Below, one piece after another: positions 13,842-63,339 of a stretch of 64,000 nt of DNA. Numbering within the stretch: the first letter of the stretch is position 1; each line of letters starts with the position of its first letter. The stretch comes from Anaerolineaceae bacterium UBA4781. Its GTDB lineage: Bacteria; Chloroflexota; Anaerolineae; Anaerolineales; Anaerolineaceae. Both the position numbers and the translations under genes were made by a program. The DNA is taken from positions 18 through 64,017 of the forward strand of contig DHHD01000106.1 in the NCBI GenBank assembly GCA_002403105.1, read 5' to 3'. The notes below the pieces were generated by a model. It was not told the origin of the DNA and ran no database searches. It saw nothing but the letters and a program-made list of their open reading frames with translations.

Positions 13842-13904
13842 GTATACCTCCATGGTTTTCGGTAAGATTATGAATTAGTCAGATCTTACTGACTAAATAC
13901 TATT

Positions 13905-14055
13905 TTGGGGAAAGGGCACGGATAGTTTTTTGATTTTGTTATCCGGGAAGGCATCCGCCGAACTCTCGATTTTCTTGCACCGTTGTGCAATTAGTTCTAC
14001 CTTGCAGTAGAAAACCTTCATCCTCGTCATCCCATCCTGGATGGGATCAGGCGCT
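13905..14055 (-). ncRNA. glmS leader: glmS ribozyme
   Basis: The minus strand reads A|GCGCC ... GACGAGGAUGAAGG ... AAUCGAGAGUUCGGCGGAUGCCUUCCCGG, matching the remembered glmS ribozyme core; located directly upstream of glmS. Confidence 0.8.
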
Positions 14056-14095
14056 ATTCCTTTCCTTGGCTCTGGTCTTTCCAGAACCAAGGCGT

Positions 14096-14175: not shown

Positions 14176-14342
14176 GTGAGAAGAGTTCGAGTGCTTCGAC
14201 ACCGAAGGGGCAATTCTGCAAAACTTGCAGAAGAATCTCTCAGGTAAAAAGACTCACTGCCAATAAACTCTGGAGAGCATAATGGATGCACCGACGGGGC
14301 AAGCCGCTTTTGAAGGCGAATCTCTCAGGTAAAATAACAGAG
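14176..14342 (+). promoter_or_regulatory. Tandem glycine riboswitch (two aptamers)
   Basis: Aptamer 1 has P1 GTGAG/CTCAC (14176..14257) with 'CACCGAAGGGGCAA' and 'CTCTCAGGTAAAAAGAC'. Aptamer 2 has P1 CTCTG/CAGAG (14268..14342) with 'CTGGAGAG', 'GCACCGACGGGGCAA' and 'CTCTCAGGTAAAATAAC'. Confidence 0.85.
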
Positions 14343-14387
14343 ATGTACAATTTTTATGTACCTCAAAAAAATAAACAGGAGTAAAAG

Positions 14388-35836: not shown

Positions 35837-35890
35837 TCCTTTTCGATAAGAGCGCTGAAAAAACTGGTATTTTATTAAATACTCTCGTTT

Positions 35891-35970
35891 TCGGTAGTCT
35901 GGCGATCATTGCATTTTTATGCTGTAGATCCATGACTTTGCGTCCCCAGTTTTCACTGAGTTTGCTCTTA
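35891..35970. repeat. Structured direct repeat, copy 1
   Basis: Aligns without gaps to 36041..36120 (offset exactly 150 nt, 64 of 80 positions identical by hand count). Confidence 0.8.
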
Positions 35971-36040
35971 TCGAACGATTCACGAACACAAAAAAACCTA
36001 TTTACACAGGTTTCTGTCTCTTTAATAAATAAAAAAGACT

Positions 36041-36120
36041 TCGGAAACCTGGCGATCATTGCGTTTTCACGCTGTAGACCCATAGTTTTGCGTCCCCGGT
36101 TTTCACCGGGTTTGCCTTTT
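36041..36120. repeat. Structured direct repeat, copy 2
   Basis: See copy 1; contains hairpins GCGT-TTTC-ACGC and CCCGG-TTTTCA-CCGGG. Confidence 0.8.
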
Positions 36121-36218
36121 CGTGTCTCGTTTTATAAATGTTCTAGTAAAATTCTATCATAAATCTACCAATTTTGAGATATAACTCACAAGAGTTTTAT
36201 TTGAGAGAAGGTCAGTTC

Positions 36219-56893: not shown

Positions 56894-56898
56894 AAATA

Positions 56899-56930
56899 AA
56901 CGAACGGGATGGCAATTCATCCCGTTCGTT
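56899..56930. terminator. Bidirectional intrinsic terminator between rel and the ECF operon
   Basis: AACGAACGGGATG-GCAATT-CATCCCGTTCGTT 13-bp stem with A/T-rich flanks. Confidence 0.75.
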
Positions 56931-56963
56931 CTTCGTTCCGAAAGCCTTCATGTACAGATTTGT

Positions 56964-61787: not shown

Positions 61788-63143
61788 TTACTGTAAATCA
61801 ATTCGTTCAATATTCTCTAAAAATACTTCTCCCTGGATCGTTCCAACCAGATATTTCATTTCGTAACCGGTAATATTGACAAAAATGCGAATGGAATCGT
61901 CTTTTTGAATGCTTGCAAGGTCAAAATCAAATTCGCTGTCTGCACTTGAAAATTTCATTATTGAGAATGAAATAGCAGTATCGACTGTCGTAAGCACTTT
62001 ATTGACAGCCACTCCCTGCAGTTTCTTCGATCCTTCTTCTAATGCAAAGTGAACGCTATCCATTTCAAACTGCCAATCTTGTGAATGGAATTCCGCCACC
62101 TGCTGTTCACCATAATAAATAGGAATTGGCATGCTTTGAATAACACTCATTTCTGCAACGCCCCGAATCCAGGCTTTACTGTTCTCAGCGCCGACCACAC
62201 TGTAGCTGGCATCCGATCCTTCTCCATCAACAACCAGGATGAGATCCGGATTGGTATTCACTTCATCCATGGTGATAAAGTAGCTGTACCCATCCGTTGC
62301 CGTAACCAATATCAGGTCTGCACCCTTACCAGGAATGGCTGTTTCAAGGATTTGCTTGAGCGGGTAACCTGTATACGTTCCTGCTTTACCCTGTAGATTG
62401 GATTCAACAGTAATTTTTTCTATAACCGTGTTTTTTACATCAAAACTTTGTTCGGCTGCTACATTCCCTGAAATTGAGACTGTTCCTTCACCCTTCGAAA
62501 TCTGTACATATACATAAGCAGAAACTGTACAGATCAGGATTGCCAGTAAAACAGAACCAATTTTGAACCATTTTGCTCTGCCTTTTTCAGGTTCCGGTGC
62601 AATGACTCCACTTTTTGCAAGATTTTTTAGCACCAGTTGGCTCAATATACCACCGAAAATAACTCCTGAAAGAAGTGCTACTCCAGCCACCGCGAGCAGG
62701 CTCCAAAAAGCCAGACTATCCGCAGGGACGGAAGCGAAGATCTGGAACACAAACACATTCGACATGGCAGCTAAAGCGCCAGCGAGGAGATTTTTTATGT
62801 ATTTGCTGATAACAGGCAGGTAAAAAACCAGTTCGACGATCAAACCAGCCACCACATCCACGATCAGTACCAAAACACCATGCGTGTTTCCACTCAATAA
62901 CTCCACAACCCCCTTCAAAATACCTGTTAATACTGCAGTTCCGGGTTTGTTTACGATCCCGACAGCCAGCAGGATCCATAAAATATGAATTCCGGCTGCC
63001 CACTGGGTCGTCCCGGCAAATCCAAGCAAAGATTGAAAAAAATCACCGACCATGTTGAGATAGGTACTTGCCAATCCCCCGATTGCAGAAAAACCAGCGA
63101 TGAAGAGTAAGTCTTTGGTGCTGAAATAATAGCTCTTTTTCAT
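61788..63143 (-). CDS. ECF S-component-like membrane domain fused through a 7th TM to two extracytoplasmic domains
   Basis: Six hydrophobic helices in the first 200 aa or so, a 7th TM ('WFKIGSVLLAILICTVSAYVYV'), then 'YTGYPLKQIL ... ATDGYSY ... KAWIRGVAEMSVI'. ATG 63143 lies 6 nt after GGAG. Confidence 0.6.
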   Translation of the reverse strand: MKKSYYFSTKDLLFIAGFSAIGGLASTYLNMVGDFFQSLLGFAGTTQWAAGIHILWILLAVGIVNKPGTAVLTGILKGVVELLSGNTHGVLVLIVDVVAGLIVELVFYLPVISKYIKNLLAGALAAMSNVFVFQIFASVPADSLAFWSLLAVAGVALLSGVIFGGILSQLVLKNLAKSGVIAPEPEKGRAKWFKIGSVLLAILICTVSAYVYVQISKGEGTVSISGNVAAEQSFDVKNTVIEKITVESNLQGKAGTYTGYPLKQILETAIPGKGADLILVTATDGYSYFITMDEVNTNPDLILVVDGEGSDASYSVVGAENSKAWIRGVAEMSVIQSMPIPIYYGEQQVAEFHSQDWQFEMDSVHFALEEGSKKLQGVAVNKVLTTVDTAISFSIMKFSSADSEFDFDLASIQKDDSIRIFVNITGYEMKYLVGTIQGEVFLENIERIDLQ

Positions 63144-63158
63144 GGTCTTCTCCATAAT

Positions 63159-63182
63159 AAAAAACGCCTGTGGAAAGGCGTT
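63159..63182 (-). terminator. Leader intrinsic terminator (attenuator) in front of the ECF operon
   Basis: Minus strand AACGCCU-UUCCAC-AGGCGUU followed by UUUU, ending just upstream of the RBS. Confidence 0.7.
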
Positions 63183-63327
63183 GGTTAATAAGGACAATTC
63201 ATTCAATTATCCTTTTTACATCTCCTTTCCAAAGAGGGAGGCGTTCGTGTTTCCACTTACACCCTAGCGGTCTCAAAACCATAACATTCATCGTCGTAGA
63301 TTAAGAGACTCGAAGATGCACTCTTTG
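63183..63327 (-). promoter_or_regulatory. Candidate riboswitch aptamer / structured leader, class unassigned
   Basis: Closing helix CAAAGAG (63327..63321) / CUCUUUG (63236..63230), internal helices, a 10-bp hairpin at 63190..63214, and an antiterminator option against the terminator. Confidence 0.5.
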
Positions 63328-63330
63328 AGC

Positions 63331-63339
63331 ATTGTATCA
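63331..63339 (-). promoter_or_regulatory. Putative extended -10 promoter of the ECF operon leader
   Basis: Minus strand TGATACAAT (TGnTAnnnT); no good -35. Confidence 0.4.

Follow-up and report, generated by a model that had tools for sequence, protein, structure and literature searches.

The 64,000-nucleotide stretch of Anaerolineaceae bacterium UBA4781 analyzed here (contig DHHD01000106.1; hereafter the window) carries on its minus strand a structured leader followed by a six-gene operon, whose first gene encodes the S component of an energy-coupling factor (ECF) transporter. The leader clearly belongs to the Moco RNA motif family (RF01055), the riboswitch class of the molybdenum and tungsten cofactors (Moco/Tuco), with the optional P3 stem missing. 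An Infernal comparison of the whole window with Rfam gave a match at 63327..63206 (-) with 67.1 bits and an E-value of 5.6e-14, nearly twice the gathering score of 36 bits. The match was untruncated, with all model positions 1-135 covered, and the site of P3 was a clean deletion of 13 positions, which assigns the RNA to the P3-lacking subtype while leaving it within the family. All conserved RF01055 blocks are present (CCGAG, CUA..UAUGG, AGGG, GGAAAC, GCCUCCC and UGGAAAGG), the fold z-score of the leader is -4.3, and the element is far beyond chance. No family other than RF01055, T-box included, reached its threshold in the leader, and no thiamine pyrophosphate (TPP) element was found there; the matches to PyrR, PreQ1 and msiK were sub-threshold and at chance level. 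An earlier note on this DNA, made from the letters alone, had called the leader a riboswitch-like element of unassigned class, with a low-confidence guess at Moco/Tuco and a covariance scan against Rfam as the way to check it. The scan bears out the guess, and the label is superseded. As an RNA, the leader is an ordinary new member of an already known riboswitch class, of the P3-lacking subtype and with a terminator as its expression platform.

The helices of the aptamer follow the family consensus (Table 1). The sequence UGGAAAGG is the invariant core of the aptamer and reaches two bases into the 3′ strand of P1; its UGGAAAG part, as well as the GGAAAC block with the GAAA loop on P4, was invariant in 16 of 16 leaders. 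A canonical CCUAAG/UAUGG tetraloop receptor is present in the paralogous copy (see below) and in most metagenome copies. From the fold proposed earlier, the GUCUC/GAGAC helix is retained as the base of P2, whereas GUGU/ACAC with its 8-nucleotide loop was a mis-registered P4, which spans 63264..63239 and is capped by GAAA. The proposed closing helix CAAAGAG (63327..63321)/CUCUUUG (63236..63230) has to be abandoned: its 3′ strand varies in orthologues without compensation, its 5′ strand coincides with the probable start of transcription or precedes it, and the P1 of the family is CAUCUUC/GGAGAUG.

Table 1. Features of the leader, the operon and related loci. Positions are those of the window, unless preceded by the label of a locus.
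Feature	Position	Strand	Basis
Extended -10 promoter element, TGATACAAT	63331..63339	-	read from sequence
RF01055 match, P3 deleted	63206..63327	-	Infernal vs Rfam
Aptamer core, P1 5′ strand to P1 3′ strand	63219..63318	-	alignment to Rfam consensus and covariation
P1, CAUCUUC/GGAGAUG	63318..63312/63225..63219	-	Rfam consensus
P2, with internal UCUACG/UAUGG receptor-like bulge	63309..63270	-	Rfam consensus
P4, GAAA tetraloop at 63253..63250	63264..63239	-	Rfam consensus
P5, CC/GG	63238..63237/63230..63229	-	Rfam consensus
Switching sequence UGGAAAGG, complementary to 63178..63171	63224..63231	-	invariant core; minimum-energy folds
Spacer hairpin, 10 bp, within the antiterminator loop	63190..63214	-	folds
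Intrinsic terminator AACGCCU-UUCCAC-AGGCGUU and U-run	63159..63182	-	terminator scan
Ribosome-binding site GGAG (63152..63149) and ATG (63143..63141) of the first gene	63141..63152	-	read from sequence
ECF S component (YkoE family, PF09819) fused to Oxidored_molyb-like extracytoplasmic domains, 451 aa	61788..63143	-	PF09819, E 9e-16
Tandem (fused) ECF ATPase, 490 aa	60310..61782	-	two ABC_tran domains; TIGR04520, 324 bits
ECF T component (CbiQ family), 274 aa	59543..60367	-	PF02361, E 2.7e-23
Membrane-anchored protein with two CxxCH motifs, 314 aa	58617..59561	-	translation; no Pfam family found
Lipoprotein, nucleotide pyrophosphatase/phosphodiesterase (alkaline-phosphatase) superfamily, 378 aa	57478..58614	-	PF01663, E 4.8e-23; lipobox
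Small lipoprotein, sulfite-oxidase/PruR pterin-binding fold, 159 aa	56964..57443	-	PF00174, E 1.1e-12
Strong operon-closing terminator, 14-bp stem	56898..56931	-	terminator scan
P3-containing riboswitch copies	L050:6391-6538; L075:6391-6540; L092:6745-6918		
Fused S gene with ample upstream sequence and no motif	L049, L063, L086-L088, L107, L108, L110-L112, L116, L117		
Tup-type genes in riboswitch-controlled clusters	L056:3417-6874; L121:13533-15062; L075:14129-15495		

Conservation and switching architecture

In what follows, G000 is the window's own genome, G002-G005 and G007 belong to the same genus (Pelolinea), G016 belongs to another genus of the same family, and L-numbered labels are individual loci extracted from genomes or metagenomes. 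The gene for the fused S component was present in all seven other Pelolinea genomes and in one genome of another genus of the family, and RF01055 precedes it in 8 of 8 orthologous loci. The paralogous lipoprotein loci are likewise preceded by RF01055; each of five genus genomes scanned as a whole contained exactly two copies, one at the S gene and one at the lipoprotein locus. An alignment of 13 leaders, made with MAFFT and not fitted to the covariance model, had 91% of its cells paired, against 37-53% with the partners slid. Compensatory double changes were seen in 13 of its 35 pairs, mostly in P2 and P4, and no shuffle reached the observed score. Hence, the orthologous leaders, proposed earlier as the material for a covariation test, are conserved and covary in these two helices.

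A covariance model built from 16 leaders was then used to scan 80 metagenome loci encoding homologues of the fused S protein. The motif was found in 63 of them, where the proteins share 37-79% identity, always on the strand of the gene and in 59 cases 61-191 nucleotides upstream of it. In the resulting alignment of 63 leaders, which is fitted to the model, 20 pairs showed compensatory changes and 92% of the cells were paired (37-45% when slid). The invariant RF01055 blocks are conserved across loci whose proteins are only about 40% identical, and P3 is absent in 60 of the 63 leaders. The remaining 17 of the 80 loci gave no motif match, and four of these have less than 100 nucleotides of upstream sequence; riboswitch control of the fused S operon is common, not universal. 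Over the phylum, the distribution of the system is patchy: a 44%-identical homologue, used as query against 400 evenly drawn genomes, retrieved the genome of the window and no other at E <= 1e-30, and a single-protein scan of genome contigs returned six close relatives only.

Downstream of the aptamer, two structures compete. The terminator at 63159..63182 has a 7-bp stem with four G-C pairs and a 6-nucleotide loop followed by a U-run, and its 5′ arm and loop contain CCUUUCCA (63178..63171). In the alternative fold, UGGAAAGG pairs with CCUUUCCA, and GCCU in the 3′ strand of P4 with AGGC in the 3′ arm of the terminator. With aptamer and terminator enforced, the energy is -51.1 kcal/mol, compared to -53.1 kcal/mol for the unconstrained minimum, which is the antiterminator fold. 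A transcript ending at 63219 adopts the aptamer fold of Rfam, whereas one ending at 63170 already contains the alternative helix. The switch does not sequester the ribosome-binding site, which is located 3′ of the terminator. The extended -10 block is kept as GAATTCTATGATACAAT in the seven genus orthologues with upstream flank available, the GGAUAAU...AUUAUCC hairpin recurs among genus orthologues, and a terminator with the CCUUUCC core is conserved in 8 of 8 genus leaders. The same alternative helix appeared in the minimum-energy folds of 8 of 8 genus leaders and 2 of 4 lipoprotein leaders, and of 59 distinct leaders, 52 have a terminator-like hairpin behind the aptamer. In the high-GC relatives, the 5′ arm of the terminator pairs instead with the P1 3′ strand GGAGAUGCGCC, so that the switching logic is the same despite the differing pairing.

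The promoter and platform elements read in the earlier note were recovered without change: the extended -10 (TGATACAAT at 63339..63331), the 10-bp hairpin at 63190..63214, the ribosome-binding site GGAG with ATG at 63143, and the terminator with its U-run, which was detected by the terminator scan and recurs in orthologues. Also upheld is the complementarity of 63231..63224 to 63178..63171, whose alternative pairing recurs in orthologues. The note's proposal of an OFF riboswitch with a mutually exclusive terminator gains support from the terminator scan, the competing folds and this recurrence. The layout is that of a standard transcriptional OFF riboswitch, with direction and ligand dependence read from the anatomy, and the leader very probably works as a P3-lacking, transcription-terminating OFF switch of the Moco/Tuco family. 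Transcription would begin just 3′ of the extended -10 element, and P1, P2, P4 and P5 would be complete once position 63219 has been transcribed. With a pterin cofactor bound, P1 and the UGGAAAGG core would be held in the aptamer, the hairpin 63182..63163 would form, and RNA polymerase would stop in the U-run, before the ribosome-binding site. When the cofactor is scarce, UGGAAAGG would instead be free to pair with CCUUUCCA, and GCCU of P4 with AGGC of the terminator, whereby termination would be blocked and the six-gene operon transcribed. The physiological logic of such a device would be feedback control over the uptake of cofactor material.

The controlled operon and its proteins

The gene for the PF09819 S component is joined in the operon by genes for a dedicated ATPase and T component, and from its gene content the operon is predicted to be a dedicated ECF importer equipped with a surface phosphodiesterase, a CxxCH protein and a PruR-like lipoprotein. 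In the S protein, an extra membrane segment joins the PF09819 part to the extracytoplasmic domains; many of its homologues are precomputed as PF00174 + PF09819, and its C-terminal part resembles the riboswitch-controlled lipoprotein. The gene order of the operon is kept in metagenome loci at only 37-45% identity, and the CxxCH protein occupies the same position there, also at 37-45% identity. Between riboswitch and S gene, L050 and L075 have an additional reading frame without assignment, which in L075 encodes 178 aa and has no Pfam family.

The AlphaFold2 model of the 159-aa lipoprotein (pLDDT 83.6) matched YedY (1xdy, E 7e-8) and sulfite dehydrogenases in a structure search, as well as PruR (7kom/7rkb), which is of similar size, with a target TM-score of about 0.7, the neopterin complex included. 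Its single cysteine is the one in the lipobox, and the protein is thus without a Mo-ligand cysteine. The connection drawn earlier between the leader and an Oxidored_molyb-like gene content holds at the level of Pfam matches, homologue annotations and the structure match of this lipoprotein, although no gene of the set is an established cofactor gene.

The genome of the window contains a second P3-lacking Moco/Tuco riboswitch with a terminator of its own (C79:8283-8403 (+), equal to L001:1501-1621; 69.5 bits), which precedes a monocistronic gene for a 145-aa lipoprotein with no Pfam family (L001:1736-2173). With 28% identity over 100 aa, this lipoprotein is a paralogue of the outer domain of the S component. 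The ECF operon itself ends with the paralogue in many metagenome loci, which explains why it has its own riboswitch copy in Pelolinea.

Ligand and transported substrate

For the Escherichia coli RNA, the signal needs MoeA and not MobA, which is genetic evidence for metal-loaded molybdopterin (Regulski et al., 2008; PMC2408646). P3 is lacking in 58 of 176 family members; these P3-lacking RNAs track tungsten-cofactor metabolism, and Tuco-related genes were found in 17 of 19 organisms possessing them (PMC2408646). The genome of the window has three AOR-family genes and its relatives have 1-7, the AOR family representing the main pterin enzymes found in the genus genomes. AOR-family enzymes are typically tungsten enzymes. 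Since P3 is missing and AOR genes are present, Tuco is most likely the ligand, an assignment that rests on correlation.

The same RNA and mechanism might instead serve a molecule other than Tuco: Moco, the two metal forms alike, or a pterin that is imported or carries no metal, such as molybdopterin. The sole genetic evidence in the family concerns Mo-loaded molybdopterin in E. coli, both P3-containing and P3-lacking versions precede this ECF transporter family, and every genus genome except G000 encodes one protein of the PF00384 (DMSO-reductase) family, a potential user of Mo. Such a ligand is nevertheless unlikely, given the absence of P3 from nearly all metagenome leaders, the dominance of AOR-family proteins among the pterin enzymes of these genomes and the published co-occurrence of P3-lacking RNAs with Tuco-related genes. 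A reading of the leader as a protein- or tRNA-dependent attenuator (PyrR-like or T-box-like) or as a constitutive terminator is effectively refuted. Its one point of departure is a PyrR match of 21.1 bits at 63156..63238, which falls far below the cut-off of 54 and has an E-value of 0.92 in a 321-nucleotide search; moreover, neither T-box nor another family reached threshold, and the invariant blocks coincide exactly with the RF01055 blocks and are kept across loci with about 40%-identical proteins.

Several observations do weigh against a Tuco-responsive OFF switch. In vitro ligand binding has not been shown for any Moco-family RNA, the relation between P3 and Tuco is a correlation only, and deletion of P3 in E. 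coli simply abolished regulation (PMC2408646). Three related ECF operons (L050, L075, L092) have a P3-containing, Moco-type riboswitch, so that the P3 state is not strictly tied to the transporter. The P2 tetraloop receptor of the window copy deviates slightly from the canonical sequence (UCUACG for CCUAAG), and at 12 loci no Moco RNA reached the Rfam threshold although ample upstream sequence was available (Table 1). The distant orthologue in G016 has another terminator, with an antiterminator not evident in its minimum-energy fold, and the position of the transcription start, probably about 63325..63322, is itself deduced.

What the operon imports is a separate issue. A cluster with genes for MoaA, MoaC, a MOSC-MoaB fusion, MoeA and ModA/ModB-like proteins is present in 5 of 8 genus genomes. 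In G004 and G002, the two genomes where cluster and riboswitches were both located, it is distant from either riboswitch copy. In the closed genome G004, the MOSC-MoaB, MoaA, MoaC, MoeA and ModB/ModA-like genes form one cluster (L123, G004:C1:1149500-1163500). True MoaA, MoaC and MoeA were not found in G005 (96% complete, 3 contigs) or G003 (95% complete), and neither MoaC nor MoeA was found in G016 (92% complete), where MoaA was not searched for. These three genomes keep 1-7 intact AOR genes along with the riboswitch-controlled operon. Without a pterin pathway the metal alone would be useless to them, which favors the uptake of ready-made cofactor. In G005, no Mo/W oxyanion transporter was found, the sole tungstate-binding candidates, PBP_like_2 matches considered as a possible TupA, being PstS proteins of pstSCAB phosphate transporters. 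MoaE (PF02391) was not found in the six genomes searched (G000, G002-G005 and G016); the molybdopterin synthase may be either divergent or missing, and this gap is not used for or against salvage. MoaC, MoaE and MoeA were also not found in the window's own genome, an assembly only 80% complete. Cofactor auxotrophy of this organism is not claimed, as its closest relative, G007, has the moa cluster. For both reasons, the salvage argument rests on G005, G003 and G016.

The balance for cofactor or pterin salvage as the function of the operon is close to even. In its full form, which is put forward tentatively and as slightly less probable than its negation, the riboswitch would sense an imported ready-made W/Mo pterin cofactor and would feedback-limit a dedicated ECF salvage system, composed of PruR-like surface receptors, a phosphodiesterase trimming dinucleotide forms and a YkoE-type S component. 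Alternatively, with the riboswitch acting as proposed, the ECF system might import the metal, as tungstate, molybdate or a complexed form, and would then be a new route in a mod/tup-type regulon. Known Moco regulons do include modABC and tupABC. In L056, the riboswitch is followed by a Tup-type permease and ATPase, a fusion of a TupA-type protein with two Oxidored_molyb-like domains, and then the ECF operon; the same fusion occurs in L121, and Tup-like genes adjoin the operon in L075. The fusion protein (a 562-aa TupA-type, PBP_like_2 binding protein), found in some metagenome riboswitch clusters, ties the pterin-type fold to tungstate handling. Moreover, the 5 of 8 genus genomes with the moa cluster still keep the ECF operon. 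Metal uptake is nonetheless rather doubtful. G005, G003 and G016 keep AOR genes and the operon despite the missing biosynthetic genes, and a second metal importer would be redundant where Tup genes share the operon. Furthermore, the S component belongs to the YkoE family, carriers of organic heterocycles, the modeled receptor fold matches the PruR pterin binders, and it is not obvious what a nucleotide pyrophosphatase would do in the uptake of oxyanions.

While the riboswitch alone is ordinary, its value lies in flagging, with cofactor specificity, an uncharacterized ECF importer with receptors of a pterin-binding fold, in an operon kept by bacteria that have tungsten enzymes and, in several species, no cofactor-making pathway. 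The pairing of riboswitch and importer offers a testable handle on both cofactor uptake and the riboswitch ligand, and represents a natural setting in which the riboswitch would have to sense a compound taken up from outside. If salvage is the true function, Moco/Tuco uptake by the operon would be without precedent in prokaryotes, and in species such as G005 it would be the sole cofactor supply for the AOR enzymes. The literature searched, whose coverage is incomplete, contained no paper linking a Moco riboswitch to an ECF transporter and none describing a bacterial Moco/Tuco uptake or salvage transporter.

Related systems and other elements of the window

The moaA leader of E. coli (RF01055, PMC2408646) shares with the window RNA P1, P2 with its tetraloop receptor, P4 with the GAAA loop, P5 and the invariant junction blocks, and it represses when the cofactor is plentiful. 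It differs in having P3 and in acting at the level of translation by hiding the ribosome-binding site in P1, whereas the window RNA lacks P3 and has an intrinsic terminator; it also controls moa biosynthesis instead of an importer. P3 is also lacking in the 'Tuco' variants of Clostridia and Syntrophomonas wolfei (PMC2408646), which have terminator platforms and occur in organisms with tungsten-enzyme genes; the present RNA comes from Chloroflexota (Anaerolineae, genus Pelolinea). Two S. wolfei copies precede genes annotated as 'sulphite oxidase' (PMC2408646), which we infer to belong probably to the same small Oxidored_molyb-like family as found here. The published gene associations of the Moco motif are moa, mod/tup and cofactor-using enzymes, and an ECF transporter is not named among them (PMC2408646, PMC3766115).

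The nearest analogue in function is provided by the thiamine/hydroxymethylpyrimidine importers encoded by ykoEDC behind TPP riboswitches, where a dedicated ECF importer with a PF09819 S component is likewise turned off by a riboswitch for a coenzyme. In comparison, the window operon has another aptamer class and adds pterin-fold domains on the S protein, a phosphodiesterase, a CxxCH protein and a lipoprotein. The window importer shares the architecture of the group I (dedicated), YkoEDC-type ECF importers, but is placed in another regulon and presumably has a different substrate. In other families of the same order, unfused YkoE-like S genes are found behind TPP riboswitches (L018:511-621, L021:3403-3516), as is classical for S components of this kind. 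PruR of Agrobacterium, Vibrio and Klebsiella (7kom, 7kos, 7rkb; PMC11194511) has the small sulfite-oxidase-type fold to which the 159-aa model was matched; it signals to a cyclic di-GMP enzyme in Proteobacteria, whereas in the window operon a transporter under a cofactor riboswitch has the fold joined to it or encoded alongside.

Apart from the Moco-family leader, the window contains two tandem cyclic di-GMP-I aptamers at 35890-35976 and 36040-36126 (-), with 81.8 and 85.3 bits, respectively. A glmS ribozyme at 13882-14066 (-) scored 38.1 bits, just over its threshold of 37, and divergent to it lies a single-aptamer glycine riboswitch at 14260-14350 (+), with 55.9 bits.

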